Positions 15,620-41,989 of a stretch of DNA of 47,642 nt are shown here, piece by piece. How positions within the stretch are numbered: the stretch's first letter is position 1; the number at the start of each line of letters is the position of its first letter. This DNA comes from an uncultured Candidatus Peribacteria bacterium. Lineage in GTDB: Bacteria > Patescibacteriota > Gracilibacteria > UBA4473. Under the pieces are notes generated by a model. The model was not told the origin of the DNA and ran no database searches. It was given only the letters and a program-made list of their open reading frames with translations. The translations under genes and the position numbers were made by a program. Location of the stretch: assembly GCA_964451885.1 (NCBI GenBank), contig CAYVJW010000001.1, positions 1-47,642 of the forward strand. Reading direction: 5' to 3'.

Positions 15620-16372
15620 CTAAAGCACCTTCTTCCTCCTCCCTCTCCAAACAAGAAAGATAATAATAACAAGATCTATGATTTGTTCTATTCTCAGCAT
15701 TTCGTAAAGCAAATAGGTTTTATCTCCATAGAGAAACTGTAGAAAAAAGTCAGCCATAAAAAATAGTATTCCGGTGCGGATGGCTAGTTTTTCGGGAAAG
15801 CGTTCATATGTTTTTTCATGGCCTTTTGTCCAATACAAGAGCCAGAGGTGGATGAAAAAGGCGTAGAGGGATATCGGGTGGACGGGGTTGAGGATGTCTA
15901 CGCCGAAAGTCTGGTATTGGATTCCCCAAGGGAGGGTGGTTTCTTTTCCGTAAGTGGCACCGGTTAAAAAAGCTGCTATGTCGGTGATTAATATTCCTAG
16001 AAGTATGGATGGAATGGCTATGTCTATCCATTGGGAAAAAGTATAGCCGTGTTTTTTAAGGTCCCACCGGGCTGTCAGCAGGCATCCTATTAGGCTTCCG
16101 TAAAAATTTATTCCACCGTCCCAGAAGGTTAAAAAAAAGTAAATACCGTTTTTTTCTATGATGCCGGGTTCAAGCAGTATTGCAAAAATTCTTCCTACTA
16201 TTATTGCCCCCAGTACCCATTTCCAAAAATGATGAAGGAAAAAATCAACCAGGATGGTTCTTTTTTGAAGCCTTTTATAATAATTCCAAGCTCCGGCTAT
16301 GAAGGCCAAAGACAGCAGGATTCCGTATATTTTGAGACTGAAGAAGCCGAAGGAAAGTTGGTAGAAGTTCAT
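15620..16372 (-). CDS. lgt: Prolipoprotein diacylglyceryl transferase, divergent paralogue 1
   Basis: Polytopic membrane protein with Lgt-like motifs: FSLKIYGILLSLAFIAGAW, WDGGINFYGSLIG, ATYGKETTLPWGIQY. I prefer ATG 16372 (MNFYQLSF) over the GTG at 16405, which overlaps the upstream gene's stop. Confidence 0.7.
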   Translation of the reverse strand: MNFYQLSFGFFSLKIYGILLSLAFIAGAWNYYKRLQKRTILVDFFLHHFWKWVLGAIIVGRIFAILLEPGIIEKNGIYFFLTFWDGGINFYGSLIGCLLTARWDLKKHGYTFSQWIDIAIPSILLGILITDIAAFLTGATYGKETTLPWGIQYQTFGVDILNPVHPISLYAFFIHLWLLYWTKGHEKTYERFPEKLAIRTGILFFMADFFLQFLYGDKTYLLYEMLRIEQIIDLVIIIFLVWRGRRKKVL

Positions 16373-16401
16373 GGATATCAAAAGTAAGTTTTTTATTACT
16401 C

Positions 16402-17262
16402 TCACACTCTAATTACTATGTCAACTTTCTCATCATGATCTTCTCTTGGGGTCTCTTTTACAATAGAAAATTTTGGCAGTACTATTACTTTTAGTGTTTT
16501 AATGCTTGATAAAACCCGGTCGTAAAACCCCATTCCCTGTCCCAGTCTGTTATTTTCATTGTCAGCTGCTACTGCAGGAATGAAAGCGATGTTGATTTCA
16601 GAAAGATCATATTTACTTTGAGTATTTGGTTCGGGGATATTAAACTTTCCTGGTTTTAATTTTTCATACGTTGAAGCATAAAACTTCATTTCGTCATTTC
16701 TAATTAATGGGAAATAATATTTCTTTTCCGGAAATGTCTTACATAGTTTTTCTACAAAATTTATTTCGTTATTAATTGGGGCGTAGATAAGTACGTGTGA
16801 GGCAGTTTTAAACTTAGGAAGATGCAATATTTTTTCTATGGCGGTCGTGGCCCATGCTTCTTTTTGTTCCGGTGAGACAGTTTGCCATTTTTTATTTATT
16901 TCTTGGCGGAGAAAGAATTTTCGTGCTCGGAGGATGTCTTTTTCCACTTGTGAGAAAAGCGCATCGGCGTTTTGGAAAGTTTTAGTCGGGCGGTCGAACT
17001 TTAATGTGTCAATCTCCATAATTTCATTATAAATTTGTTTGTCAAAATCCAGGATGTGGACTTCGACGGAAAAGTTGCCTCCAAAAGTTTGTCTTTCTCC
17101 GTAATGAAGTACTGCATTAAAATGCTTTCCTCCCAAAAAAACTTGAACAAAATAAACACCGTGTTTAAGGTTGGCACGTCCAATAATTTTGAGGTTGGCA
17201 GTGGCGATTCCAAACTTTGTTCCTATGGAAACGCCGGGGATTACTTGGCCTGTGAATTTCAT
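16402..17262 (-). CDS. Fusion protein: riboflavin kinase domain (N-terminal) + 5-formyltetrahydrofolate cyclo-ligase domain (C-terminal)
   Basis: The N-terminal roughly 115 aa reads GQVIPGVSIGTKFGIATANL...HGVYFVQV...HYGERQTFGG..VEVHILDFDKQIYNEIMEI, the RibF C-terminal riboflavin kinase pattern. The C-terminal roughly 170 aa reads VLIYAPINNEINF...KPGKFNIPEP...IAFIPAVAADNENNRLGQGMGFYDR...PREDHDEKVDIVI, the MTHFS pattern. Confidence 0.8.
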   Translation of the reverse strand: MKFTGQVIPGVSIGTKFGIATANLKIIGRANLKHGVYFVQVFLGGKHFNAVLHYGERQTFGGNFSVEVHILDFDKQIYNEIMEIDTLKFDRPTKTFQNADALFSQVEKDILRARKFFLRQEINKKWQTVSPEQKEAWATTAIEKILHLPKFKTASHVLIYAPINNEINFVEKLCKTFPEKKYYFPLIRNDEMKFYASTYEKLKPGKFNIPEPNTQSKYDLSEINIAFIPAVAADNENNRLGQGMGFYDRVLSSIKTLKVIVLPKFSIVKETPREDHDEKVDIVIRV

Positions 17263-20478: not shown

Positions 20479-20564
20479 GAACATACCTGCTACACGGAAA
20501 GATGGTAGAACTTAGAGCTTAGAACTTAGAAAAGAATCTGTATTATTCCTCTAAGTTCTATTTT
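20479..20564 (+). repeat. Intergenic hairpin repeat, copy 1 (probably also the pnp terminator)
   Basis: gaacatacctgctacacggaaagatggtagaacttagagcttagaacttagaaaagaatctgtattattcctctaagttcta+tttt starts 2 nt after the pnp stop. Its reverse complement is about 85-90 % identical by eye to 39535-39636 and 41908-41989. The internal stem is tagaacttaga(20520-30)/tctaagttcta(20550-60), followed by TTTT. Confidence 0.85.
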
Positions 20565-24340: not shown

Positions 24341-25564
24341 ATGAAAATTACTTCTGTTCACGCTCGTGAAATTCTTGATTCCCGTGGAAATCCTACGGTT
24401 GAAGTGGAAATGTCTGACGGGGTTCATACTGTCTCTGCGGCGGTTCCTTCCGGTGCTTCGACGGGAGTGCATGAGGCGTTGGAGCTTCGGGACGGGGATA
24501 AGTCCCGGTATAATGGTAAGGGGGTGTTGAAGGCGGTGGGGAATGTAAATGAAGTGATTGCTTCGGAGGTTGTGGGATTAGATCCTGCCGAACAAGAAAG
24601 CCTTGATAAAAAAATGCTGGATTTAGACGGAACAGAAAATAAATCCCGTTTGGGGGCGAATGCTATCCTGGGGGTTTCTTTGGCTGCTGCCAGACTGACG
24701 GCAAAGCAGAAAAATAGGCCTCTTTTTCAGCATATAAATGATCTTTTCGGAGGGAAGGTTAGTTTGCCGCGTCCTATGATGAATATCATCAATGGCGGAG
24801 CACATGCGGATTCGGGTTTGGCGATTCAAGAATTCATGGTCATGCCTCAGTTTGATGATTTTTCAGAAAATCTCAGAGCAGGAGCAGAAATTTTTCAGGC
24901 CTTGAAAAAAATTCTCAAAGGGCGTGGGGAGGCTATCGGTGTGGGGGACGAGGGAGGATTTGCTCCTCATTTGCCGAAAGTGGCGGATGCTTTTGACGTG
25001 ATACTGGAGGCCATTGAGGCAGCGAGTTATAATACGGAAAATGTAAAGTTGGCGATAGATGTGGCGGCTTCGGAGTTTTTTGAAGAGGAAAAATATATGG
25101 TTGATGGAAAAGTTTTTTCTTCTTCTGATTTGGTGGGTTTTTACGGGGATCTCTTGAAAAAATATCCTTTAATATCCATTGAGGATTCGCATTCGGAGGA
25201 TGATTTTGAGGGATTTATTCAGATGCAGAAAAAGTTTGGCGATAAGATTCAGCTGGTGGGGGATGATCTCTTTGTGACGAATAAAAAACGTCTACAGGCA
25301 GGGATTGATGAGGGACAGGCGAATGCGATTTTGATAAAAGTCAATCAGATAGGGTCATTGACAGAGACTTTTGCAACGATGAAGTTGGCGAAGGCCAATG
25401 GTTTTGGGACGGTTATTTCTCATCGTTCTGGGGAAACGGAAGACTGCTTCATAGCTGATCTTGCGGTGGGGACGGATGCGGGGCAGATAAAGACGGGGTC
25501 GCTGAGCCGGTCGGAGCGGATTTGTAAGTATAATCAGTTGCTGAGGATTGGGGAGAGGTTATGA
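24341..25564 (+). CDS. eno: Enolase (phosphopyruvate hydratase)
   Basis: 407 aa. Motifs are [76 protein letters not shown]. Confidence 0.97.
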
Positions 25565-25969
25565 AAAAATCTTCGTAATCCCTGCTGCTAGGATAGCAAT
25601 GAATAAACTAACCATTCCCCATTGCCAGCCAAAAGTTACTTTTACTTTATGACGAGCTTGATATATTTCATCAAGCCGATCTCGTTCTCTATTTTGATTA
25701 TTTTCGACACGTTCAATACTTCTCTCTACAATGTCCAAACGTTTGTCCATTTGATCCAAACGTTTATCCATTTGCTCAAAGCGTCGGTCAATCTGCTCAA
25801 AACGTTGGTCAATCTGCTCAAAACGTTGGTCAATCTGCTCAAAACGTTGGTCAATTTGATTAAAACGCTGGTCAATTTGATTAAAACGCTGGTCAATCTG
25901 ACTAAAGCGTTGGTCGACATCTGCTCGAAAATCTTTTAGTAATTGTAAGATGGTGTCTTCTTTTGTCAT
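25559..25969 (-). CDS. Tail-anchored coiled-coil protein built from perfect heptad repeats (QIDQRFE)n
   Basis: [79 protein letters not shown]... ending in a C-terminal TM segment [20 protein letters not shown] prefer ATG 25969 over TTG 26005. Confidence 0.65.
25745..25912. repeat. 21-bp tandem repeat array (8 units; degenerate units flank it)
   Basis: Three identical units gtcaatctgctcaaaacgttg lie at 25787-25849. Two identical units gtcaatttgattaaaacgctg lie at 25850-25891. Diverged units sit on both sides. The array is in frame and encodes the heptads of the 25559-25969 protein. Confidence 0.9.
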
Positions 25970-26085
25970 TGTGTATATTTTATTATAATTAATTAAGGAT
26001 GTCAAAAATAAAGGAAAAAATAAGACTTTCGTTTGATTTATATATATTTTTATGGTAAAATCAAGAGATTTGATAATTTTAAACC

Positions 26086-27299: not shown

Positions 27300-27402
27300 C
27301 TATTACCCTTCTCGTGTGGGTTTTGACATATATGAGAGCTTTCTTTTTATGAGAATGTTCGAATCATCTGTCGAAGCCCCGTCACACCCGGAAGGGTAAT
27401 AG
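27300..27402 (+). promoter_or_regulatory. 12-bp perfect inverted repeat framing the leader of the GC-rich gene
   Basis: ctattacccttc (27300-27311) and gaagggtaatag (27391-27402) are exact reverse complements. Extra gtgtg/cacac pairing is possible just inside. The structure ends about 37 nt before the ATG at 27440, where composition switches from AT-rich to GC-rich. Confidence 0.45.
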
Positions 27403-27439
27403 TGGAAAGTTTTTTTAACACCAACCAAGGGGAAACAGC

Positions 27440-28963
27440 ATGAGCGAGAGCGTGCAAGACGGCTCTGGTTCCCAGCCGCAAAGCGGGGATCAAGGGGCTT
27501 CCCCCCCTGACGGGGGTGAAGCAATGGATCAACAGGACCAGGACAACAACGGAGGAGGTGAACCCATCGATGTGAAAGTAAACGAACAAGAGGACACCGA
27601 AGGGGATGCTTTCCCCGAGGAAACTGAGGTCGAACCGCAGATGTATGATGACCAACCGCAGATGAATGATCACCCCATTACAAAAGAGGATGCTATGGAC
27701 AACACCAAACCCAACAAACTGGATCAACTCAAACAGGAGGTAGTTGACGAGCAGCGCCTCCGCAGTGATCTTGCCGCCGAGGTGGCGAGTTCCAAACAGG
27801 CCGCTGAGTTGCTTAGTGCGGTGGCGAACAAGTTGAATACGCCGCCTCCGCATGCGCAGGTGGCTGGGGCCATCGACAACGCTGCTACTGCCTTTACCGG
27901 AGCGGCCACGGCCATACAGGAGGCGGCGGTCAAGGTTGCTGAGAGCAATCAGGCGGCCAATTCTGGTGACGGAAGTAACGGCCAGCAGCCGGAGGGTGAC
28001 GGGAAGATTCCTTTGAAGACCATCGTGATTTCGGTGCGGTTGGCCAAGGACACCAAGGGGCTCCACATCAGGTCGATCATTCCTGGCAAGGGGCTGCGTA
28101 GTGGTATCATCAAGAAGCGTAGCACTATGGCGGTGGATGTGAGTGGGAACATCAAGTTCATGACCAACGATGGGACAATTTATCAAGGGCGTATCCGCGA
28201 TGGTCAGGTAGTGACTGGACGGTTCTTGGAAGCCATGGTGACGGAAGTTGTCAATGGTGTTACCTTGACTACCGATCCCATCGAGCATCATGTGAACAAT
28301 CCCTGGGAGGAGGTTGTCACGGCGTTCCCGACTAACACCATCACTCCGGACGATCCGCATGAGGTGGACATCGAGGATGACACCGATGATGTTCCGGGTC
28401 AGGAAAAGACGCCATCTCGCGGTTTCTGGAATAAATCCAACAAATCGGATTCGACCGGCGCCTCTGCTCCGACATCATCGACTCAGGAGCCGAAATCCGG
28501 TGTCTCGCCGTTATGGATTGTGGTGGCTGTGATCGGGACTGCGCTGGCTGGAGGAGGCATGTATACGGCCAATCAACTCGGGATGTTTGGCGCCACAGTG
28601 GCGTCGCAGCAGGCGCAGATTGCCAATTTTAACGGGTTCCTGAGCGGCCAAAACCAATCGCTTCTTGGCCAGATTGGGGAGCTTGAGGCTCAGCTTGACG
28701 CGGCCCAGCACAAGGTGAATAACGCGGAAGCGCAGGTTCAGGTGTCCCGCAATCAGGTGACCCAGTTGAATAAGAAGTTGACCAAGACCAGCACGGCCAA
28801 TTTCGATCGCATAAACCGCAAGTTGCAGAACGCCCAGAAGCGCTATGCGGATGCGAGGGCGGCCGAAAAGCGGGCCATTGCGGACCTGACTGCTCTTGAG
28901 AAAACCCTGAAAGAGGCGGAGAAGCATGCGAGCAACGCCAAGGGTCGATTGGGAGTCATGTGA
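27440..28963 (+). CDS. Compositionally foreign (GC-rich) bitopic membrane protein: acidic disordered N-terminus, central beta-rich domain, one TM, C-terminal coiled coil
   Basis: 507 aa. A GGGGA ribosome-binding site lies 6 nt upstream. The TM segment is PLWIVVAVIGTALAGGGMY (about 28502-28565). The C-terminal heptad-rich region reads LGQIGELEAQLDAAQHKVNNAEAQVQVSRNQVTQLNKKL... Codon choice (GCC, GTG, CTG, CAG) is unlike neighbouring genes. I recognise no family. Confidence 0.7.
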   Translation: MSESVQDGSGSQPQSGDQGASPPDGGEAMDQQDQDNNGGGEPIDVKVNEQEDTEGDAFPEETEVEPQMYDDQPQMNDHPITKEDAMDNTKPNKLDQLKQEVVDEQRLRSDLAAEVASSKQAAELLSAVANKLNTPPPHAQVAGAIDNAATAFTGAATAIQEAAVKVAESNQAANSGDGSNGQQPEGDGKIPLKTIVISVRLAKDTKGLHIRSIIPGKGLRSGIIKKRSTMAVDVSGNIKFMTNDGTIYQGRIRDGQVVTGRFLEAMVTEVVNGVTLTTDPIEHHVNNPWEEVVTAFPTNTITPDDPHEVDIEDDTDDVPGQEKTPSRGFWNKSNKSDSTGASAPTSSTQEPKSGVSPLWIVVAVIGTALAGGGMYTANQLGMFGATVASQQAQIANFNGFLSGQNQSLLGQIGELEAQLDAAQHKVNNAEAQVQVSRNQVTQLNKKLTKTSTANFDRINRKLQNAQKRYADARAAEKRAIADLTALEKTLKEAEKHASNAKGRLGVM

Positions 28964-29258: not shown

Positions 29259-32200
29259 ATGTCTCTTGAACAAACCACCTCTCCGACCTTAGACCAGGCT
29301 GTAACTTTACACGAAGTTGCGGCGGCTTTTGCGTATGGGGAAGGGGCGGAGGCGAGACAAGTACTCAATCCCTCACGGCCTGATGATTTGGTGTTGCTTA
29401 AGAGGCGGAGTGTGCAGAATCTATTGGAAAATGCTAAATTACCTGTTTCGGGGCTTTTATATGCAGAGGTAGATACCGCGCTTCCTCCTGACATTGAAAG
29501 ATCTCTTCGAAAACTGAAAAATGCGCCCAATGAGGCGGAACGAGTGGCGGTAAAAATGATAGAGGATATTCAGAAAAGCCTGGTGAATATTTCTTCAAAA
29601 TTAAAGGGACTTGAACGGGCTTCTTACGATACAAGACGTCGGGAATTTAGCAGGTTAAATAGTTTATTTTTGGATTATATCCCCAGAGCGTTTGTGCATT
29701 CTAAATTTCCTTTGGGGTACCTTCCTGCTCAAAGTCCGCGTAGATCAGAACTTAATAACTCTCTTCAAGATTTGGTGTCATTGGGACAGAATGTAGAAAG
29801 AACATATGGTTTAGTTGTCTCCTTCAATCAAGAGGCAACACTAGCCAATCTTCGTGGTAGTATTGAGCGAGTCAGTGCTGTAGTGTCGATAGATCCTCCA
29901 TCCTTATTAGACACTCCGGAAGTGGGTTGGCAGGAAAAAGGTTGGCAAATAGCTGATAGAATTATTCCGCAAAAGTTAATCCAATGGGGGAGGCAGTGGA
30001 CAAGTGGGAACGAAGAGGGCGGGGACAGAGAAAATGTTGATAGGATAGATTATGAAGCACTTGGGTTTGATTCCTCTCAGTACGAATATCTGAGAAGGCT
30101 GGAGAGATGGGAAGAAAAAACAGGCGCTTACTTGAAAAAAACAGAAGATTATTTATTGGCTCGTCATCCTTCCTGGCAAAAAGATTTTCCAGATATATGG
30201 GATGCGTTTAACCGGCTTTATACAGTTCAAAGGCAGATAGAAGTGGAAATCAGAACTTTGCGTCGTGCTTCTGAAAGCAATTCTTCCGGGGCGGTTTTGA
30301 AAGGCCTGGAAGAAAATTCAATTGCTCCATCATCCGATAAAGTAGAACAGGTTACTGATTATTTACTAAACCAGCTTCCTGCTTCTATTCGTTCAAAACC
30401 GGTTTGTTCAGCGGCTTTGGGTTTTTTAAATGAACATTTTGGAGTGGACGTCGGGTTTAGCATGAGGGCAACTTCCGCGTGGGCGCTTGCGGGGCATATG
30501 ACTAAGCTTCATTCTACCAATAGAGCTAAATTTAAAAAGGTTGATGAGGGGGAGTATCAGCTTTCTTCTGTGTCGTTGAGGAAGCAGGATGTCCGGCCGA
30601 TTTATATGGCATTGGGGGGAATAAATGAAGGGGATGAAAGAAATGGAGCGAAAAAATATATTACTTTTGTTTATGAGGCTTCTGAGTTTAAGGATAATGC
30701 GGCTCGGGCTTTTGCTAAGAGTCCGGATTCTGTCCGGCCAAATACGCATGTGATGGAGGTGTTTGGGCGGAAAAAGTTTTTGGTTCGTGTTGATTCGCCA
30801 GTAAGATTGAGAGATTTTTTGAAAAAACAGTTTGTTCCCCGAGATTACATAGGAGATACACGTAAACCTGCATCGCACGTGGATTCAGATGCTTTTTTAA
30901 TTGAACTTGTTAAGGTTCTTAATTTAAAAATAAATGGCATGTCTGTGTCTATGGATTTGAATAGGCAATTTGAGGGGGAAGTTGAGTGGGAAGATTTTAT
31001 GGGAATGGATTTTATTCATGTGAGAGATCCTTTGAATAAAAAGGCGGAAATTCCAAAAATAAGGTTATTGCCGCTTTCAACAATGCTCCTGGATAAGAGA
31101 TTCGTTCCCGTGGACGTATTGGAAACACAGTCAACGGCTATAGAAAGCATTCCAACCGATCAACTCATTCAAAAATTATCAGAAGCTCAGTGGGGATACT
31201 TAAGAGGAAGATCCGTCAAGGTTAGCTATCTGCAAGTGGCTTTGGAGAGGATTGGATTGTCGCCAGGTTCGTTTGACGGGTATTATGCTACGAATGGGGT
31301 ATTGAATAAACTAAATAAAACGAGAGGTGCGGAAAGAATCACGTATCTTGATAATCTTGGGATGGGAAAAGGAGGAGATACGGCCAGGGCCGTGATGGCT
31401 TACCAAAGGATTAGGGGGTTTTCGGAGGATGGACTGGCTGGGGAACATACGGTGGCGGGTGTAGTTGAAGATTTGAGAATAGGCAACAGAATTTCCATTC
31501 CTCGGAGAGTAGAACTGGCAGAGCCGCTATTGACCTATCAGGAAGAACCATTGAAGATAGTGGATTTTGCGCAGGAATTAAATAGAAAGCAAGCTTTGAG
31601 GTTTATAGAAAGAAAATTACATAAACTTGGTGTATCGAGGATAAGAAATGCGGCTCAAGTGGAAGGATTGAGAGATAATATATATGAAGCAGTAGAGGGA
31701 TCTGGTATAAAAATTACTCCGGGGAATATGTCTTATATTGTTTCCGTGCAATACCTGGAATCTTCTTTTGGTTTGGGACAGCGGTTTGGAGAAGGAATTT
31801 ATAATAATTTTATAAACGGTCTTTCCTGGTACGAGAAATATACCGTTGAATCGGCTTTGGATGTGGTAAAAGGAATAGAAATAGCCGGTTTTAGCGGTGA
31901 AGAGAGAGTTGATTCTTTTTTGGCCTGTAAGACAAAAAAAGATTTGTATCGGTGGGCACAGGATACAGTGAGTATGCTGCAAAATCCTGAACTGCAAAGC
32001 GAGATTGAGAATAAGTTTTTCTTTAATAGTGCCTTGAAGATAGTGTTGGATTTTTTTGAAATAGAATATGAAGGCGATGATTATTATGAAGCCGCGGTTG
32101 CAAGACTGGCAGAAGAACCTTCTTCCTTGGGAATTTTTCAGGTAAATGTGGATTCTTTTATAAGGATTTTGGAAAGTCGGAAGGAAGAATGGAAAAACGA

Positions 32201-32837
32201 TACTCGATGGAGAGCTCTTTTGCGGGGAGAAAGAATAGATAGGGATTTGCTTGCTAGGTCTTTATTGGAAGATTCGGATCGTTTAGATATTTTGTCAAAG
32301 GTGGATATAGAGGCGCTTGTCATTCGGTATTATTTGAAGCCTATAATGGAAAGATATGATTTTAATGGAGATGGATCCGTGGGATTGAACGAAGTTGGGC
32401 TTATTACTGCGGATTTTCATGCGGGCAGTTTTTCTCCCCGAAACGCAGCTGTGCAACAAGCTTTAAGTCGAGTGCTTGGAACAAGTCTGATTTTGGATGG
32501 AGATTTGTCTTTTTATGATAAAGAAGGAAACCCGGTTTTTTGGGAGGGGGCGGAAACGGTACAAAGTCTTATGAAATTTTCCGAAAGTTTGACATCAGAG
32601 CAAAGAAAAGGACTATCCTCTCGAGAATTTGTAGAAAGTTTTGTTGTTTTGTCTAATTCTCCCGATCTGGAGAGACACCAGCTTTATAGTGTTTTGATGC
32701 AGGCGGGGGAAGATCGATGGATCATTCCTGTGGGAGCCAGGATAAAAAGTGGGTTTGCAACAGTGAGTGGGATTGAATCTGTCAGTGCGAAGGCTTATGT
32801 CCAAAGAGCTCAGGAGGTGTATTTGGCAGGACATTGA
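29259..32837 (+). CDS. Large multidomain protein: shared novel N-terminal domain + peptidoglycan-binding (PG_binding_1-like) repeat + EF-hand Ca loop, no signal peptide
   Basis: 1192 aa. The N-terminal roughly 335 aa are paralogous to the N-terminus of 32862-34400. VSYLQVALERIGLSPGSFDG...GDTARAVMAYQRIRGFSEDGLAGEHTVAGV (about 31221-31475) fits the PG_binding_1 pattern with an insertion. DFNGDGSVGLNE (32358-32393) is a canonical EF-hand loop. EEPSSLGIFQVN is only weakly reminiscent of lytic-transglycosylase ES..GLMQ motifs. Confidence 0.75.
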   Translation: MSLEQTTSPTLDQAVTLHEVAAAFAYGEGAEARQVLNPSRPDDLVLLKRRSVQNLLENAKLPVSGLLYAEVDTALPPDIERSLRKLKNAPNEAERVAVKMIEDIQKSLVNISSKLKGLERASYDTRRREFSRLNSLFLDYIPRAFVHSKFPLGYLPAQSPRRSELNNSLQDLVSLGQNVERTYGLVVSFNQEATLANLRGSIERVSAVVSIDPPSLLDTPEVGWQEKGWQIADRIIPQKLIQWGRQWTSGNEEGGDRENVDRIDYEALGFDSSQYEYLRRLERWEEKTGAYLKKTEDYLLARHPSWQKDFPDIWDAFNRLYTVQRQIEVEIRTLRRASESNSSGAVLKGLEENSIAPSSDKVEQVTDYLLNQLPASIRSKPVCSAALGFLNEHFGVDVGFSMRATSAWALAGHMTKLHSTNRAKFKKVDEGEYQLSSVSLRKQDVRPIYMALGGINEGDERNGAKKYITFVYEASEFKDNAARAFAKSPDSVRPNTHVMEVFGRKKFLVRVDSPVRLRDFLKKQFVPRDYIGDTRKPASHVDSDAFLIELVKVLNLKINGMSVSMDLNRQFEGEVEWEDFMGMDFIHVRDPLNKKAEIPKIRLLPLSTMLLDKRFVPVDVLETQSTAIESIPTDQLIQKLSEAQWGYLRGRSVKVSYLQVALERIGLSPGSFDGYYATNGVLNKLNKTRGAERITYLDNLGMGKGGDTARAVMAYQRIRGFSEDGLAGEHTVAGVVEDLRIGNRISIPRRVELAEPLLTYQEEPLKIVDFAQELNRKQALRFIERKLHKLGVSRIRNAAQVEGLRDNIYEAVEGSGIKITPGNMSYIVSVQYLESSFGLGQRFGEGIYNNFINGLSWYEKYTVESALDVVKGIEIAGFSGEERVDSFLACKTKKDLYRWAQDTVSMLQNPELQSEIENKFFFNSALKIVLDFFEIEYEGDDYYEAAVARLAEEPSSLGIFQVNVDSFIRILESRKEEWKNDTRWRALLRGERIDRDLLARSLLEDSDRLDILSKVDIEALVIRYYLKPIMERYDFNGDGSVGLNEVGLITADFHAGSFSPRNAAVQQALSRVLGTSLILDGDLSFYDKEGNPVFWEGAETVQSLMKFSESLTSEQRKGLSSREFVESFVVLSNSPDLERHQLYSVLMQAGEDRWIIPVGARIKSGFATVSGIESVSAKAYVQRAQEVYLAGH

Positions 32838-32861
32838 ATTCAATTTTTAATTTCTAATTAA

Positions 32862-34400
32862 ATGACTATTGAGCAGAGTGGTGTGTCGACGTTAGATCAG
32901 GCTGTTACGATGCAGGAGGTAGCAGATGCTTTTGCTTATAGTGATAGAGTGGAAAAGAGGCAAGTGTTAGATCCTTCAAATCCTGATGATGTGGTGTTAC
33001 TGCAGAGATGGAATGTGAGTGAACTATTGGATTCATTTAGGATGCCTGTTTCAGGGTCCGTGTATGCTTCAGCACAAGGGGAGATGATGTCTGACGCAAA
33101 TGTTGCACTTTTCTCAAATATGGAAAGGGATATTCAAAAACTGAAAAGATTGATATTTCGTCAAGCGAAAGAAAAATCTGAAAAAGCGATTGAGGACATT
33201 CGCGAGAGTATTAATAATATCACTTCAAAACTGAGAGAATTCGAGAGTCGGCCTCATGAAGAAAGAATTCAGGAGTTGGAAAGGCTTCATAGTTTGATGC
33301 GAGAATATATTCCCAGAGCGGAAATGCATTTGGAGGCTTTTTTTGAGGATTTGTCTCCAAAAAGTGATTCCAGAATTATTCTTTCCAAATCGATTCGTGA
33401 ATTAAAAGAACTTGAGCAAAAATTAGGAAAGCATCTTGAATTAGCGCTTCAATTTGATCCAGCCATCACGCTTAGAGATATTCAGAAGAGCATTGATAAG
33501 TCAAAAGACGAACTGACTTTGCGTTCAGGAGAATCCATCGATTATTTGCGTCGAATAAAAGCCTGGGTAGAAAAAGCCAAGGCTTATGAGAAAAAAGCAA
33601 AACTTTATTTAAGAGCTCGTGCTCCCAATTGGAGAAAAGATTTTCCGGAAATTAAAAAAGCGCTTAGGGCGCTTTTTGCGTTTCGTAGAGGGATAGAACG
33701 TAAAATTTCTCGTCCTGGTATTGAATCTGTTCTTTTAAATGGAAGTGTAATTCCGGGAAAATATTTAAGCTCAGCCAGAAAGACAGAACGATCAATTGAC
33801 GGGGAGGAGGGGCATCGCCTCGAAAAAATTTTTCAGCCGGAGTTGGATTTTTTGGCTGGCAAGATGGGGAAGGGGGATTATGTTTTGTTGGCAGATGTTT
33901 CTCAAAAAGAGCAACTGGACGGAGGGCCTTTTCAGCAGCTTTATTGGGTGCGACGGACGGCGGACGGTTTTATTTTTGAAAAGCGGTTTATCATGTCAGG
34001 GAGTAAGGTAGAACCCGGAAAAAATGTAACAAGTTCATTTAGTACTCCTTATGGACTTCATAAAATTGCTTCTATAGTAAAAGGTGATTTTGCTTCCGTT
34101 ATTAAGGGAAGAAGAGTCCAAAGAAGGAAGGTAGAAAATATTTCAACCGGAGATGCGAGAATTTTAACTACGGCAGCTCTGTATTTGAAAGGCCTGGAAA
34201 GGGGGATAAATGATTTGTCTAACCCTCGGGGGATTGCTATCCATGGAACTCCTTTTGAAAGGAGATTAGGGAGGCCGGCTTCTCACGGTTGTATTTGGCT
34301 TTCGAATGCGGATATTTTAAATCTTTTGGAGATGATAAATCGGAATCCAGAAAAGGGGTGGGCGTATATAACAGATCAGAAGAATCATCGCAATTTGTAA
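32862..34400 (+). CDS. Shared novel N-terminal domain fused to a YkuD-type L,D-transpeptidase catalytic domain, no signal peptide
   Basis: 512 aa. The N-terminus MTIEQSGVSTLDQAVTMQEVADAFAY...YLRRIKAWVEKAKAYEKKAKLYLRARAPNWRKDFPEI parallels the 1192-aa protein. The C-terminus carries TPYGLHKI...GIAIHGTPFERRLGRPASHGCIWLSNADILNL, the YkuD H-G/SHGC motif. The catalytic Cys codon is at 34290-34292. Confidence 0.8.
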   Translation: MTIEQSGVSTLDQAVTMQEVADAFAYSDRVEKRQVLDPSNPDDVVLLQRWNVSELLDSFRMPVSGSVYASAQGEMMSDANVALFSNMERDIQKLKRLIFRQAKEKSEKAIEDIRESINNITSKLREFESRPHEERIQELERLHSLMREYIPRAEMHLEAFFEDLSPKSDSRIILSKSIRELKELEQKLGKHLELALQFDPAITLRDIQKSIDKSKDELTLRSGESIDYLRRIKAWVEKAKAYEKKAKLYLRARAPNWRKDFPEIKKALRALFAFRRGIERKISRPGIESVLLNGSVIPGKYLSSARKTERSIDGEEGHRLEKIFQPELDFLAGKMGKGDYVLLADVSQKEQLDGGPFQQLYWVRRTADGFIFEKRFIMSGSKVEPGKNVTSSFSTPYGLHKIASIVKGDFASVIKGRRVQRRKVENISTGDARILTTAALYLKGLERGINDLSNPRGIAIHGTPFERRLGRPASHGCIWLSNADILNLLEMINRNPEKGWAYITDQKNHRNL

Positions 34401-34627: not shown

Positions 34628-35131
34628 ATGCTCAAAAAACCGTGGTTTTGGATAATCATCCTTTCGTTGATGCTAGGGGCGGAAGCTTTCTGGATCTTCA
34701 ATGGAAGGGGAGAAGCGGCGGCTGGTCATGGATCTGACCCGCCTTTTGTTAACCAACAGGTTGACGCGGACTGGTTAGATGACCTTGATAAATTTCGGCA
34801 GTCAGTTGCTGATGAGGCATTGGCGCGGCGCGACGGGGATAAAAATCTTAGTCGCCAAGTCAAGAAGCTTCGCACTCAGATGGAGGTTGTTGCTCGGAAA
34901 CATGAATCGTTGACTCGCCGGGTCGATGAGAGTGATCGGAATTGGGCTCGTCTGGCAGAAGGGCGTCATGAAGCCGAAACAATGGCAAAACAGTATTGGG
35001 AACATGATGCAAACAATTCTCTTTGCGGCTCTTTCTACTCCATGGGCCATTGTCCGGAAGTTCTTCCATGGAAGGAGTACCTCGAAAGGGCGCTTCGGGA
35101 AGCAGGTGTATTCTTCTTTCCCGAGAGATGA
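34628..35131 (+). CDS. Hypothetical N-terminally anchored membrane protein, elevated GC
   Basis: The start moves to ATG 34628, preceded by a strong AGGAGG ribosome-binding site (gaggaggataggtATG). The TM segment is WFWIIILSLMLGAEAFWIF. The remainder is charged and helical (LRTQMEVVARKHESLTRRVDESDRNWARLAEGRHEAE). The track ORF begins at 34523. Confidence 0.6.
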   Translation: MLKKPWFWIIILSLMLGAEAFWIFNGRGEAAAGHGSDPPFVNQQVDADWLDDLDKFRQSVADEALARRDGDKNLSRQVKKLRTQMEVVARKHESLTRRVDESDRNWARLAEGRHEAETMAKQYWEHDANNSLCGSFYSMGHCPEVLPWKEYLERALREAGVFFFPER

Positions 35132-35225
35132 TGTGGTGGGATCGGTATAGAGAGAGCTGGGGGGTGGCATAGATGTCGCCCTCCTCTTTTTTGCTTTTTT
35201 TCTTGTAAGATGGTAGAATATAAAG

Positions 35226-36275
35226 ATGGAAAATAAGGATCAATCATCGCTTCCTAAACAACCGGGTGAAAAACCTGTGTCGGGGGAGGGGAAAACTCCT
35301 TCGGGAGAGGCTTTATTGCCGCCTAAACTGCCTCAAGTAGCCGTAGTAGAGGGGGAGGGGATAAAAGTGGGAAGTGAAGAAGAACAATTAAAAATTAAAA
35401 ATGAAAATAATGAAAGGAATGAAGAAAATGAGAAGAATGAAGAGGTAGAATCTGAAGATGAGTTGATTGTTGAAGAAGAGGAGGATTTTTTCTGGGTGGT
35501 TCAGCGTGTTGTGTGGGGGATTGTAAAAACAGTTTTTATATTGGGGCTTATCGGATTTTTTGTTTGGATCATATGGGGACCGGATAAAAAATCGTTTTCG
35601 GAACTCGAAAAAGCAAAATCGGTTGTTTTGGAGGTTTCTAAAGAAAAGGGGGTTTCGATTCAGAAGGAGAAATTGCTGCCAAGGAAATATATTTCACCTG
35701 CCGACCGCTTGATTGAGCTGGAAGAAATGTTTGATCCGGCAAATCAAAAAAGTTCGATTATCAGTTCTGTGCTGTGGTTGGAAAAAGCTGGCGCTTTTTT
35801 GAATAAATCTGCTTTTGAACTGATACCGAGTTCTGTTCCTCAAATTCGGAAGCAAAGAGTGGAATTTGTTCTCAAAGAAATTCGGCAGTTGATCGAGTAT
35901 TCAGAGGTTATTCAAGGGAGGGTAATGCAGGAAATTAACGCGTTTTCACAGCGATCTAAACAGGCCAATGAAGATTCTGTTTTAAATGAAACCGCTTTTT
36001 TTGAGGCACTTCGGCACTTTGAAGGAGTGGAGGCGGAAATTTTTCTTGCCCAGAAAGTCGATGCTGAAAAACTGGTGATGGCAAATTCGACTTTTGCCAG
36101 CGGGAGGAAAATTTTACTGCAGAATATTCAGCGTTATGATAAGCGGCTTCGTAGTTTATACGAAAATGTTGAGGCTAATAAAGAGGCGTTGATCCATGAT
36201 GTGCGTGTGGTTGATTTTCCGGAGAGTACGTTGGAGATTATTTTGAGCCCGAGGGAGTGGAGGGAGGGGCAGTGA
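35226..36275 (+). CDS. Hypothetical bitopic membrane protein with an acidic N-terminal region
   Basis: 349 aa. The low-complexity N-terminus is rich in E/N/K (EEQLKIKNENNERNEENEKNEEVESEDELIVEEEED). One TM segment is VVWGIVKTVFILGLIGFFVWIIWG. The C-terminal domain is helical. I recognise no family. Confidence 0.6.
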   Translation: MENKDQSSLPKQPGEKPVSGEGKTPSGEALLPPKLPQVAVVEGEGIKVGSEEEQLKIKNENNERNEENEKNEEVESEDELIVEEEEDFFWVVQRVVWGIVKTVFILGLIGFFVWIIWGPDKKSFSELEKAKSVVLEVSKEKGVSIQKEKLLPRKYISPADRLIELEEMFDPANQKSSIISSVLWLEKAGAFLNKSAFELIPSSVPQIRKQRVEFVLKEIRQLIEYSEVIQGRVMQEINAFSQRSKQANEDSVLNETAFFEALRHFEGVEAEIFLAQKVDAEKLVMANSTFASGRKILLQNIQRYDKRLRSLYENVEANKEALIHDVRVVDFPESTLEIILSPREWREGQ

Positions 36276-36285
36276 GTTATGAAAT

Positions 36286-38628
36286 TTACTCTTGAAAAAT
36301 AAAACTGATATTCTTCGCTACTTTCTTTCTCATTTTTGGAGATAATTGAATTTTTCGTTGTGAAACAATGATTTTTTGTTTTTTTTCAGGCGGGGAGGAC
36401 GGCTTTTCAACTGCTTCATATTGAGGATATGGAATAAAAGCCGCTTCTTTTCGCTTTTTTTCTTCTATTTTTTGTAAAAATTCAGGGTTAACTCGATCAA
36501 TAAAATGTTGAAAAAATTGAGGAGAGGTATTATTTTTTGTTTCGAGGGTAAGGTCAAGAGCTCTTGCTTTCGGCACTTTTTTTATCAGTATTTTTTCCAG
36601 CCAGGATTTTAGCGGGCGGTCAATGTGCGTGGAGGCTCCTCCGGAGGCGTAGGTTTCTATGGTTATTTCTTCTGAATCAGTTTGCCCTGAAAAATCAGTG
36701 ACGGTAAGGGTGAGGGTGTATCTGTCGGGATTGTTTAGTTTTTGATTCGGCGGGTTCATTACATTCGAAAAAACTTTGTTGTTAAGCTTCCATTCAAATA
36801 GTTGTAAGTCATAGTTTCCGTTGGGGTCGGTGGAACCTTCTCCCGTTACATTTAGTGAAAAGGGGATAGCGCCTGATATTTTTCCTGATCCTTGAATTTT
36901 GATTACGGCTGTGGGGGGGGAATTTACGGTTTCGTTTATTTTTCCTAGGGATCCGTTGAAGTGTCGAAAAAAATCGGAAGGCATATTGTGGTCTTCGTAA
37001 TTGACAAATCTGGCGATGGATTCGTTTTTGATGATGCCTTCGATATCAATACATGGCTCGGTCCAATTATCGGCTTCTCTGTTTTTTTCTACTCGCGAAG
37101 CTTCTGTGGCGCTGAGTTCTGTCTTTTTCCAACAAATAAAATCTTCTGTTGTTTCAAAGCTTGTTCCGGAAAATAAAATCACTTCCACGGTTCCCGATCC
37201 GCTGGAAATGCCTCCTTCTTTGAGGGAATGTATTTCATAAGGAGAAGCGCTGTTTATAATATCGGAAGTTTCCTGGTCAGGTTTGATAACCAAAAAATCT
37301 CCTTCACGTACTCGAAAATCATAATTTATGTTTATCAACGAAGTTCCGTTGTGTTTTATCTCCAGGTATTTTAGGTTTATGGGGTTAGTATTGGCGGATT
37401 TTATGTAAAGTTCGATGAAATCCGGTCCTGTTTCGCTGTCGCGGTTTGGGGAAATTTCGGAAATCAGTAGTTCTATGTCTTCCGGATAGGTAGGCGCATC
37501 AAAATTTTCTTCGCCCTGTGTGTGCCGAAAATTCGAATCTTTGTTGTTTTTGTAAATGAGAGGAAAGAGAGAGTTTTTTTCTTTATGTGCATTCCATATT
37601 TCCGACCACTCTACTGCCAAAGAAGTTCCTGATTTAGCTTTTTCATAATTTATTTCTGCCTTAGTTTCATTGTTTTCGTTCAAAATTTGTATTGTTCCGT
37701 TATCGTTTGGGAGAGAGATGGGGGATTTGGTCCAGAAAAATCGGGCTGTTTCTTGCGGCAAAAAAATTAACCGGTTTTCGTCCAGGATAACGGTTGTTCC
37801 CAATCCGGATATTTCTTCCGAAATCACAGTTCCTGATTCGGTCAGCTCTACTTCTCGCCCTGCCAAATTTACGGCTCCTGAAGCAAGAATTAGATCATTT
37901 TTTGAGTCAAGGAATTTTATTGTCGAACTTGTGCCGTTAGATATCTGCCAATCAGAAATGTCTATCGCTTCATTTCCTTCGATTTCAAATTCAAACCATT
38001 CCTCCATATTCTCAATTTTATGCGGCTGTATTTCCGTGATCCGAACCGTTGCATCTCCGGATTTGAATTGAATGTCTTCTTCTTTCTCTTCTTGCTCGCT
38101 TATCTCCTCGCCCGCTTGTCCGCTATTCTCCCCTGGTGTTCCATGTTCGGTTGATAATTGCCAACTTTCAAGAAGAGAGGGATCGGCTCTGGCAGAAATC
38201 CGTTCCAAGCTTTTCCCGCTTTCGCATGAGGGATATGTGAATTGCTCGCCGAGTTCTATATCATCGTTTTCATCTCTAAGGGCGATTTCTTCTCCGGAAT
38301 TTTTCAGGCTACTCCAAGATGAATCAAAAACCTGCCCGGAAAAGTTAGGAAAAATGGTTAAAAATTCTTCTTCTTTATCGACTATTATGGCTCTTACGTT
38401 TGGTAGCAGGGTATTTTCATCATCGGACTGATTAATTGAATGGTTTGTGCCTTGTTCAAGAAACTTCCATTTAGTCAGATCAACCGGTTCTTCCGAAACA
38501 TTCCACACTTCGATCCATTCGGCATTTCCGGGTTCGCAGGCGCCGATTTCTGTGATGATGATTTTTGGAGATGCGAAAATAAGTTGAGGATAAAGAAAAA
38601 GCCACAGGCTAAATATTGTCCGTTTCAT
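36286..38628 (-). CDS. Secreted lamin-tail-domain (LTD) repeat protein with a PKD-like domain
   Basis: Signal peptide MKRTIFSLWLFLYPQLIFA. At least three LTD-like modules are present: IIITEIGACEPGNAEWIEVWNVSEEPVDLTKWKF; VRITEIQPHKIENMEEWFEFEIEGNEAIDISDWQI; LLISEISPNRDSETGPDFIELYIK...INLKYLEI. The PKD-like segment is PFSLNVTGEGSTDPNGNYDLQLFEWKL...YTLTLTVTDFSGQTDSEEITIE. Alternative starts are at 38634 and 38649. Confidence 0.75.
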   Translation of the reverse strand: MKRTIFSLWLFLYPQLIFASPKIIITEIGACEPGNAEWIEVWNVSEEPVDLTKWKFLEQGTNHSINQSDDENTLLPNVRAIIVDKEEEFLTIFPNFSGQVFDSSWSSLKNSGEEIALRDENDDIELGEQFTYPSCESGKSLERISARADPSLLESWQLSTEHGTPGENSGQAGEEISEQEEKEEDIQFKSGDATVRITEIQPHKIENMEEWFEFEIEGNEAIDISDWQISNGTSSTIKFLDSKNDLILASGAVNLAGREVELTESGTVISEEISGLGTTVILDENRLIFLPQETARFFWTKSPISLPNDNGTIQILNENNETKAEINYEKAKSGTSLAVEWSEIWNAHKEKNSLFPLIYKNNKDSNFRHTQGEENFDAPTYPEDIELLISEISPNRDSETGPDFIELYIKSANTNPINLKYLEIKHNGTSLININYDFRVREGDFLVIKPDQETSDIINSASPYEIHSLKEGGISSGSGTVEVILFSGTSFETTEDFICWKKTELSATEASRVEKNREADNWTEPCIDIEGIIKNESIARFVNYEDHNMPSDFFRHFNGSLGKINETVNSPPTAVIKIQGSGKISGAIPFSLNVTGEGSTDPNGNYDLQLFEWKLNNKVFSNVMNPPNQKLNNPDRYTLTLTVTDFSGQTDSEEITIETYASGGASTHIDRPLKSWLEKILIKKVPKARALDLTLETKNNTSPQFFQHFIDRVNPEFLQKIEEKKRKEAAFIPYPQYEAVEKPSSPPEKKQKIIVSQRKIQLSPKMRKKVAKNISFIFQE

Positions 38629-38889
38629 ATTCATTTGTATTTTTACCAAAATTACTTATAAAATCTAGTAAATGCAAAATACGAAAAACTTTGGTTTTGA
38701 TTTCCAAAAAAACCAAAAAATAAGCCAAATCGACCATCAAAAATTGGATAAAGAACTGGAGCATTTTTTCGGCATGCAAAGTTTCAGAACTTCCAGTCGT
38801 TTTGCAATTACAATGGAGGAATGATGATTGGATATTGGTTCGCTGCGGTGAATGTACTTTGAACAATTAGCCATTTAACCATTTAATTT

Positions 38890-39534: not shown

Positions 39535-39636
39535 TAGAACTTAGTTGGTAGATGGTAGAACTTAGAAGAATACAGATTTTTTTTCTAAGTTCTAAGCTCT
39601 AAGTTCTACCATCTTTTCCGTGTATCAGGTATGTTC
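39535..39636 (-). repeat. Intergenic hairpin repeat, copy 2 (longest copy)
   Basis: tagaacttagttggtagatggtagaacttagaagaatacagattttttttctaagttctaagctctaagttctaccatcttttccgtgtatcaggtatgttc. It carries a 16-17 bp inverted repeat, gatggtagaacttaga(39551-66)/tctaagttctaccatc(39597-612). It lies between the LemA-like gene and lgt paralogue 2. Confidence 0.85.
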
Positions 39637-39668: not shown

Positions 39669-40424
39669 ATGACCTGGAACCTCGATCCCATCGCTTTCTC
39701 CCTCTTTGGTCTCGATGTTCGATGGTACGGTTTGTCGTATGTTCTTGGATTTTTTCTTGTTTTGATTATCGGGCATAAAATCATTTTGCGAACGGGATTG
39801 AAAGTGTCTAAATCAGATTTTGAGAATCTTGTTTTCGGTTTGTTTTTTATTGGAATTGTAGGGGGGAGGTTGGGAGAGTTTTTGTTTTATGCGCCGCAAA
39901 CTTTTTTGGAAGATCCTTTGGAGGTTTTCAAGATTTGGCACGGTGGGATGTCTATTCACGGGGGGATTTTGGCGGCCATTTTGTTTGGGGTTTGGTGGGC
40001 GAAAAAGCATAAGATTTCGTTTTATTGTCTGGCCGACAGTTTAGTTATTCCTCTGGCGATTGCTTTGGGGGTTGGCCGGATTGCGAATTTTATTAATGGA
40101 GAACTCGTTGGAATTCCGACAGATCAGAGCTGGGGGGTGATTTTTCCGCATGTGGACGATCTGTTTCGGCATCCGTCGCAGCTTTATGAAGCGGGGAAGA
40201 ATTTTATTTTGGCGGGGTTGTTAATGTGGCTGTTGATTAAAGATTTTTGGAAAAAGCCGGGATTTTTATTTTCGGTTTTTCTTATAGGGTACGGGGTTTT
40301 GAGATTTATTATTGAGTTTTGTCGGGAGCCGGACGGGATGATTTGGGTTTTGTCGACGGGACAGGTTTTGTGTTTGGGGATGGTTGTTTTCGGCTTGACA
40401 ATTCGAAAATTTTCATTTACATGA
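39669..40424 (+). CDS. lgt: Prolipoprotein diacylglyceryl transferase, canonical paralogue 2
   Basis: 251 aa. Motifs are DVRWYGLSYVLGF, IWHGGMSIHGGILAAILFG, GRIANFINGELVGIPTDQSWGVIFP, RHPSQLYEA. Confidence 0.92.
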   Translation: MTWNLDPIAFSLFGLDVRWYGLSYVLGFFLVLIIGHKIILRTGLKVSKSDFENLVFGLFFIGIVGGRLGEFLFYAPQTFLEDPLEVFKIWHGGMSIHGGILAAILFGVWWAKKHKISFYCLADSLVIPLAIALGVGRIANFINGELVGIPTDQSWGVIFPHVDDLFRHPSQLYEAGKNFILAGLLMWLLIKDFWKKPGFLFSVFLIGYGVLRFIIEFCREPDGMIWVLSTGQVLCLGMVVFGLTIRKFSFT

Positions 40425-41907: not shown

Positions 41908-41989
41908 ATAGAACTTAGAAGAATACAGATTCTTTTTCTATGCTCTAAGCTCTAAGTTCTACCATCTTTTCCGCGTAGCGGATATGTTC
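41908..41989 (-). repeat. Intergenic hairpin repeat, copy 3
   Basis: atagaacttagaagaatacagattctttttctatgctctaagctctaagttctaccatcttttccgcgtagcggatatgttc lies about 20 nt downstream of the stop of the minus-strand PBP gene. Relative to its upstream gene it has the same orientation as copy 1. Confidence 0.85.

Follow-up and report, generated by a model that had tools for sequence, protein, structure and literature searches.

Two adjacent cell-wall-type proteins with a common orphan N-terminal module in a Candidatus Peribacteria genome

The gene pair and its domains

Positions 1-47,642 of contig CAYVJW010000001.1 (the window hereafter, meaning the whole 47.6-kb stretch of DNA that was analyzed) contain two co-directional open reading frames (ORFs), denoted here as genes A and B and separated by 24 bp. 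Their products begin with a common N-terminal module of roughly 290-335 residues, denoted as the head, and end in different domains of cell-wall type, denoted as the tails. A first-pass annotation, made from the sequence alone, had described the two ORFs, had proposed that the head is common to both from the first residue, and had likened this arrangement to polymorphic effectors. Both ORFs are as described, and the two pairs of aligned peptides that it had quoted are found in A and B. The features of the pair are given below. Positions are those of the window, + denotes the forward strand and aa denotes amino acids.

29259-32837, +, gene A, 1192 aa
29259-30263, +, head of A, residues 1-335, from BLASTP and MAFFT comparison with the head of B
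30264-31196, +, middle region of A, residues 336-646, no recognizable domain
31197-31475, +, PG_binding_1 domain (PF01471) of A, residues 647-739, split by an insertion
31662-32714, +, DUF1615/YaiW-like domain (PF07759) of A, residues about 802-1152, full-length and divergent
32862-34400, +, gene B, 512 aa
32862-33716, +, head of B, residues 1-285, paralogue of the head of A
33873-34376, +, YkuD domain (L,D-transpeptidase/carboxypeptidase, PF03734) of B, residues 338-505

The listed starts of A and B are the most upstream ones available in either ORF, and the alignment of the two products begins at residue 1. Neither protein has a signal peptide, as the first-pass annotation had stated, and membrane segments are likewise absent: Kyte-Doolittle means over 19 residues peak at 1.25 in A and at 0.78 in B, where the threshold for a membrane-type segment is 1.6.

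Relationship of the two heads

BLASTP aligned residues 1-204 of A with residues 1-213 of B at 40% identity (E 7e-40), and residues 276-331 of A with residues 227-282 of B at 50% identity (E 4e-9). Between the remaining segments of the two proteins BLASTP found nothing better than E 0.78, which is consistent with the earlier claim that the tails are unrelated beyond the head. The corresponding phmmer values for the heads were 8e-51 and 2e-51. By these scores the likeness of the two heads is real and far above chance. In the MAFFT alignment the heads are 42% identical across 280 common columns, and the head of A has a 58-residue insertion (residues 219-276, positions 29913-30086) without counterpart in B. 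Residues 1-70 of A (29259-29468) are strongly conserved and are followed by the helical region, and the head of B is followed by a linker of about 50 residues (286-337). When the six-frame translation of the whole window was searched with phmmer, neither a third copy of the head nor a copy of either tail was found.

We then consider the age of the duplication. In the codon alignment of A and B the synonymous divergence (dS) of the heads is about 1.3-2.0 and therefore saturated. The nonsynonymous divergence (dN) rises from 0.26 in residues 1-47 to 0.65 in residues 48-227 and amounts to 0.49 for the final conserved block, so that dN/dS is below 1, with the lowest ratio in residues 1-47 (0.26/1.99). 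Because dS is saturated, the duplication is an old one and not a recent conversion, and gene conversion is ruled out as the source of the likeness. The codon comparison thus identifies A and B as old tandem paralogues, and the dN/dS values indicate that the head has been kept by purifying selection, strongest on the first 50 or so residues. The GC content and the GC content at third codon positions (GC3) are 0.42 and 0.36 for A, and 0.405 and 0.34 for B, both as in the surrounding genes. Since these values are typical of the genome, we regard A and B as native genes, and recent horizontal transfer of the pair is ruled out on the same ground.

Searches for the head in other genomes and structures

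The head had been described as unlike those of LXG/WXG100, Rhs and MafB proteins, and this agrees with all of our comparisons. The head family has no match in Pfam, NCBIfam, PHROGs or PADLOC and no structural match in PDB or BFVD. At E<=10 the head of A has no Pfam match at all, LXG/WXG100 included, and the head of B has weak matches of coiled-coil type only.

The first-pass annotation had proposed a search of metagenomic protein sets with a hidden Markov model of the head. Exhaustive HMMER search with the head profile over 1.84 billion representatives of about 15 billion public proteins returned only A, part of B (a fragment of 367 aa that comes from a different sample of this population), and one repeat protein. 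The latter (P0003) is a tandem-repeat protein that has only a 'IKDSMNNITSKL'-like peptide in common with the head, and it was rejected as spurious. A word-index search with the two-head profile returned the B fragment only and missed A itself, which is in the collection; we relied on the exhaustive HMMER search. Pattern scans of GTDB genomes, of JGI metagenomes and, with the two-head profile, of IMG/VR contigs were negative. Similarly, nothing was found when 50,697 phage genomes were searched with the head of A by tblastn, or when the six-frame translation of 160 loci was searched with the head by hmmsearch.

A structure prediction of the head, likewise proposed earlier, was made with AlphaFold2 and rests on a two-sequence alignment. 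Residues 85-285 are predicted to be helical with a predicted local distance difference test (pLDDT) of 77-88, residues 1-84 fall below 50, and the predicted template-modeling score is 0.49. Foldseek search with the predicted fold gave generic helical bundles only (spectrin repeats, BAR domains and designed bundles), with best E values of 0.27 in PDB and 0.25 in BFVD.

Tail of A

Both tails had been called peptidoglycan-directed in the first-pass annotation. This holds for the YkuD domain of B and for the PG_binding_1 domain of A, while such a function is only suspected for the DUF1615/YaiW domain of A. Residues 336-1192 of A have a self match only in the protein database and no PDB sequence match, and the middle region has no Pfam match even at E<=10. 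A degenerate YkuD domain in this middle region, suspected from the peptide 'RKPASH', was rejected after hmmsearch with the YkuD profile found nothing.

The insertion that splits the PG_binding_1 domain consists of residues 678-705 and a few flanking ones. The unspliced sequence scores 24.8 bits and matches the second half of the PF01471 profile only. With the insertion spliced out, the score is 44.7 bits (E 1.6e-11) and the match covers profile positions 4-55 of 57. On this profile coverage, the domain is judged to be complete, though interrupted.

The C-terminal domain of A matches PF07759 at 44.2 and 47.7 bits, above the cut-off of 25 bits, and the HMMER match covers profile positions 184-270 only. 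When four DUF1615 proteins were aligned with A by hhalign, the probability was 97.1% (E 7e-11) over 258 columns and profile positions 52-322 of 372, so that residues 802-1152 or so of A span almost the whole profile. The invariant motifs of DUF1615 appear in A as YLE834SSF, LGIFQVNV, ADFHAGSFSPRNAAVQ and LDGDL; in family notation QES, G-x-x-QV, ADF-x-AG, RNAA-x-Q and LDGDL are kept. By tblastn against plasmid and chromid records, DUF1615 is the family of E. coli YaiW, which is annotated as a surface-exposed outer-membrane lipoprotein and whose gene adjoins sbmA. All four DUF1615 members examined have L-A-[GA]-C lipoboxes. These members are proteobacterial lipoproteins of 360-390 aa, whereas A is a leaderless 1192-aa protein from the Candidate Phyla Radiation (CPR) that carries the domain at its C-terminus, with about 20% identity and longer loops. 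No lipobox cysteine serves the domain in A, where it lies 800 residues from an N-terminus that is not hydrophobic.

Family-1 lytic transglycosylases are characterized by the motifs E-S, G-L-M-Q and A-Y-N-x-G. Look-alikes of these motifs are present as YLES, GIFQ and DFHAG in A and as QES, GPMQ and DFNAG in DUF1615. A has no match to Pfam SLT (PF01464) even at E<=10, and hhalign of DUF1615 against five E. coli SLT domains aligned only the motif-I region (E 0.021, probability 2%). The likeness of DUF1615 to SLT-type lytic transglycosylases is thus without statistical support, and we treat it as a lead only. A single-sequence AlphaFold2 model of the C-terminal domain of A had a pLDDT of 36 and was unusable.

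As for the genomic context of the family, a DUF1615/YaiW gene lies near ddlA (D-Ala-D-Ala ligase) in E. coli (L165, CP061270.1) and near an alanine racemase gene in Eleftheria terrae (L164, NZ_CP106952.1). These neighbors, together with the fusion to PG_binding_1 in A, give a hint that the YaiW family may be tied to peptidoglycan.

Tail of B

B matches PF03734 at 37.5 bits as a whole protein and at 40.0 bits as the tail alone, above the curated cut-off of 23.4 bits. A profile made of B and 16 relatives matches the B. subtilis YkuD structures 2mtz, 1y7m and 4a1i at about 1e-12 (best 6e-13). The YkuD catalytic motif H-x(14-17)-[S/T]-H-G-C is present in the active-site stretch IAIH461GTPFERRLGRPASHGC477, where the catalytic His461 and Cys477 fall in columns that are invariant in the 16 relatives. 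The residues that follow (GCIW479L) depart from the family pattern G-C-h-R/N, with Trp479 in the place where 16/16 relatives carry Arg.

The nearest relatives of B are small proteins of 160-270 aa with 33-41% identity. Most of them have signal peptides or lipoboxes, and a few are leaderless; the leaderless ones of about 160 aa are P0014, P0016 and P0018. The delivery that is typical of YkuD proteins, by signal peptide or lipobox, is not found in B. The best NCBIfam model for the tail is ElsL (NF040925) at 40.8 bits, which is far under the cut-off of 270 bits. ElsL of Acinetobacter baumannii is a leaderless YkuD L,D-carboxypeptidase that works in the cytoplasm (PMC8649774). B is leaderless like ElsL and keeps the His...Ser-His-Gly-Cys signature. 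In contrast to the ElsL-type architecture of a single leaderless domain of about 165 aa, B (512 aa) has an orphan head of 285 residues and then a linker before its domain, and a Trp in place of Arg after Cys-Ile.

Organism and genomic neighborhood

The window is a stretch of bacterial chromosome. Its genes include TGT, PNPase, an RluD-like gene, YchF, dCTP deaminase, DHFR, enolase, PheT, EngA and a Mur-ligase-type gene with Mur_ligase_M and C domains, and the genes of envelope type are a class A penicillin-binding protein (PBP1A), two Lgt, LemA and a glycosyltransferase. The PNPase is 74%, 63%, 62% and 61% identical to those of Candidatus Peribacteria, Gracilibacteria and unclassified metagenome-assembled genomes, and about 55% identical to those of Peregrinibacteria metagenome-assembled genomes; these matches came with 1-kb flanks only. 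Because of these identities, the organism is placed in the Peribacteria/Peregrinibacteria group of the CPR (Patescibacteria). In a metagenome scan with Lgt, only distant loci at <=46% identity were among the matches listed. In published Peribacteria genomes the pathway of peptidoglycan synthesis is complete, and Sec, type II secretion and type IV pili are encoded as well (PMC4736985). The same locus was found on contigs from three samples (JGI 3300009128, JGI 3300009375 and ENA ERZ23498658) with 99.94-100% identity, and the three contigs represent one population without polymorphism.

No secretion-system gene, including a type VII EssC-type ATPase, was found in the window, nor was any phage structural or integration gene, and housekeeping genes lie on either side of the pair. 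Neither A nor B matched any PADLOC defence model. Scans of the window for Rfam families and tRNAs were empty, and A therefore has no riboswitch upstream. Single-pass membrane coiled-coil proteins are encoded near the pair at 25559-26005 (-), 27440-28963, 34523/34628-35131 and 35226-36275, and none of them has an informative family match. The neighboring features that are used in the interpretation are the following.

25559-26005, -, XhlA-like membrane protein, 148 aa, tandem 'QRFxQIDQRF' repeats and a C-terminal membrane segment
27440-28963, +, upstream membrane coiled-coil protein, 507 aa, membrane segment at residues 354-376, possible partner only
34628-35131, +, downstream small membrane protein, 167 aa from a Met preceded by AGGAGG, 202 aa from the first TTG
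35159-35184, +, terminator-like hairpin, 11-bp stem with 7 GC pairs, then a T-run

The 507-aa protein is a composition outlier, with a GC content of 0.562 and a GC3 of 0.654 compared to a GC3 of 0.33-0.45 in nearly all genes of the window, and its gene may have been acquired recently. It has only weak matches of coiled-coil type and no informative homologue. The 53-aa representative of its 90% cluster (P0006) is unrelated to it, comes from eukaryote-like TARA contigs and was set aside as a clustering artefact. A long spurious antisense ORF at 27347-28360 also arises from the composition of this gene.

The 34628-35131 protein combines a membrane anchor at its N-terminus (residues 41-59 when counted in the 202-aa form) with a cysteine-containing coiled-coil domain, and it has no family match. 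The JGI gene call corresponds to the 167-aa form. A promoter-like site and a strong ribosome-binding site (AGGAGG) belong to this gene itself, whereas A and B are without these, and its link to the pair is uncertain. The hairpin at 35159-35184 is the first strong one downstream of A and B.

The 25559-26005 gene lies between the enolase gene and the orphan gene cluster, and its product, a membrane protein of phage type, has matches to phrog_6701 (1.5e-23), to a PHROG with the annotation 'hemolysin' (2.6e-6) and, at a weak level, to Pfam XhlA. Directly downstream of the cluster, on the opposite strand, the gene at 36286-38649 (-) encodes a 787-aa secreted protein (hydrophobic N-terminus) with three lamin-tail-domain matches and a weak PKD-like region.

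Interpretation and alternatives

Judged by their domain composition, A and B are modular cell-wall enzymes that carry an unprecedented, lineage-restricted N-terminal module. Given the empty searches for it elsewhere, this module is a local curiosity rather than a new effector family of wide occurrence. In the explanation that we prefer, a lineage-specific module, composed of a leader-like, conserved segment (about 70 residues) and a helical bundle (about 200 residues), would have been joined to two different cell-wall modules. The head stands where the versions of both tail families in other bacteria have their Sec or lipoprotein signals. Its role would be non-catalytic, as a common targeting or docking module that brings both enzymes to one envelope site or partner, either along a route independent of Sec or through attachment to a partner that is anchored in the membrane, for example a flanking single-pass coiled-coil protein. 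At the envelope, B would work on stem peptides, either trimming or cross-linking them, and A would attach to the sacculus and act on it. The reasoning is that both tail families are normally delivered by Sec or as lipoproteins, that these signals are missing in A and B, and that the same selected head is found instead. Export of the pair, a docking function for the head and the activity of the A tail are what we infer from these sequence features. We give a probability of roughly 0.4 to a lineage-specific head for targeting or docking that has replaced Sec and lipoprotein signals on two envelope-type modules.

A bolder form of this explanation would make the head a so far unseen Sec-independent export or targeting module of CPR bacteria. 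The N-terminal segment of about 70 residues would be read by a membrane machine, possibly the flanking coiled-coil proteins, and the cargo, consisting of the YaiW-like, peptidoglycan-binding A and the L,D-transpeptidase/carboxypeptidase B, would be sent to the cell's own wall or to that of a host. We consider this form decidedly unlikely. If it were true, the head would mark the beginning of a new class of leaderless secretion substrates, one that evolves too fast to be traced by sequence searches.

Several points weigh against a targeting or docking head. The head is an orphan that the collections searched contain in two proteins only, both of one population, and for this reason its function cannot be read from a comparison. 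Its best-conserved part, at the N-terminus, is not confidently modeled in the predicted structure. DUF1615/YaiW is not an established peptidoglycan enzyme, and the activity of B may be altered by Trp479 near the catalytic Cys. Export of A and B is a prediction, and by analogy with ElsL a leaderless YkuD protein can be cytoplasmic. Finally, the window has no secretion or holin gene that is demonstrably linked to the pair.

The analogy with ElsL leads to an explanation in which A and B are a cytoplasmic pair for muropeptide processing. As an L,D-carboxypeptidase like ElsL, B would trim tetrapeptides that are recycled or scavenged, PG_binding_1 would allow A to bind muropeptides, and the head would hold the two in one complex. 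The lack of signal peptides and membrane segments in both proteins fits this explanation, as do ElsL being the top NCBIfam match of the B tail, the leaderless proteins of about 160 aa among the nearest relatives of B, the precedent of a leaderless YkuD protein in the cytoplasm (PMC8649774), and the dependence of CPR bacteria on scavenging. However, the B tail reaches 40.8 bits with the ElsL model, for which the cut-off is 270 bits, most of the close YkuD relatives have signal peptides, PG_binding_1 and DUF1615 are modules of envelope type, and at 512 aa B does not resemble the single ElsL-type domain of about 165 aa. We therefore hold a cytoplasmic role for doubtful. A second alternative, closer to the first-pass annotation, is that A and B are wall effectors directed at a host or a competitor, with the head as trafficking domain for an unrecognized export route of an episymbiotic CPR cell, the tails attacking foreign peptidoglycan, and a neighboring membrane protein providing self-protection. 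Like LXG/WXG100, Rhs and MafB polymorphic toxins and Tlde1-type effectors of the type VI secretion system, A and B are encoded by adjacent genes and combine one head with different enzymatic C-termini and no Sec signal. The YkuD-type effector Tlde1 is reported to have an immunity protein, Tldi1 (PMC13478106), and a small membrane-anchored protein is encoded directly downstream of B. CPR predators have also been predicted to secrete peptidoglycan hydrolases against their hosts (PMC8080830). The head of A and B matches none of the heads of these systems in sequence or fold and has no more than two members. Among the 1.84 billion representatives no homologue with an alternative tail was found, which is an outcome that the first-pass annotation itself had named as refuting its parallel, and no further head-bearing protein is known among the approximately 15 billion proteins. 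The parallel to polymorphic effectors is therefore not supported, and it is further weakened by the absence of a secretion ATPase or apparatus gene from the window and by the 99.94-100% identity of the locus across three samples, that is, without polymorphism between strains. Furthermore, neither protein matches LXG, Rhs, MafB or PAAR, their base composition is native, the downstream gene has a promoter-like site and a strong ribosome-binding site of its own, and there is no clear immunity gene. An effector role is unlikely on these grounds.

The pair could also be the remnant of a phage-type lysis system. In that case a holin-like membrane lesion would let A and B, as leaderless lysins, pass to the wall, for autolysis, release of cell contents or a type-10-like secretion step. 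A resembles PG_binding_1 hydrolases such as the endolysin XlyA of B. subtilis in that PG_binding_1 is paired with a putative wall-active domain in a protein without signal peptide, and PG_binding_1 is found in many endolysins. The sole hint of such a system is the XhlA-like gene, which lies 3.2 kb upstream on the opposite strand. Unlike these hydrolases, A has a split PG_binding_1 domain and a DUF1615 partner that is not an amidase or lysozyme, and at 1192 aa it far exceeds the size of an endolysin. A and B have no PHROG match, the scans of the 50,697 phage genomes and of IMG/VR were empty, and the flanks are housekeeping genes in a window that lacks phage structural and integration genes. This origin is highly improbable.

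We return to the targeting or docking head in order to state what it would mean. If the head does replace a signal peptide, CPR bacteria would have a route of export or envelope docking that is invisible to current annotation, in a group whose cell-surface biology and host interaction are largely uncharted. The shared module also ties DUF1615/YaiW to PG_binding_1 and YkuD, which is a hint that YaiW-type proteins may act on the cell wall. The importance is limited in that two proteins of one uncultured population do not permit generalization.

Other features of the window

In addition to the gene pair, we noticed a repeated intergenic element of 81-84 bp in three copies of about 90% identity, at 20479-20560 (-), 39556-39636 (+) and 41909-41989 (+). 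Its fold is a long hairpin with a U-run behind it (-30.8 kcal/mol, z-score -5.8), and it has no Rfam match. Its core 13-mer TAGAACTTAGAAG has 14 matches in comparison with 1.4 expected when <=2 mismatches are allowed. The element looks like a repeated terminator or an element of the repetitive extragenic palindromic (REP) type.

The two Lgt paralogues of the window, at 15620-16405 (-) and 39669-40424 (+), comprise a canonical one (238.6 bits) and a divergent one (91.9 bits). At 16402-17262 (-), riboflavin-kinase and 5-formyltetrahydrofolate cyclo-ligase domains are fused in one 285-aa protein.

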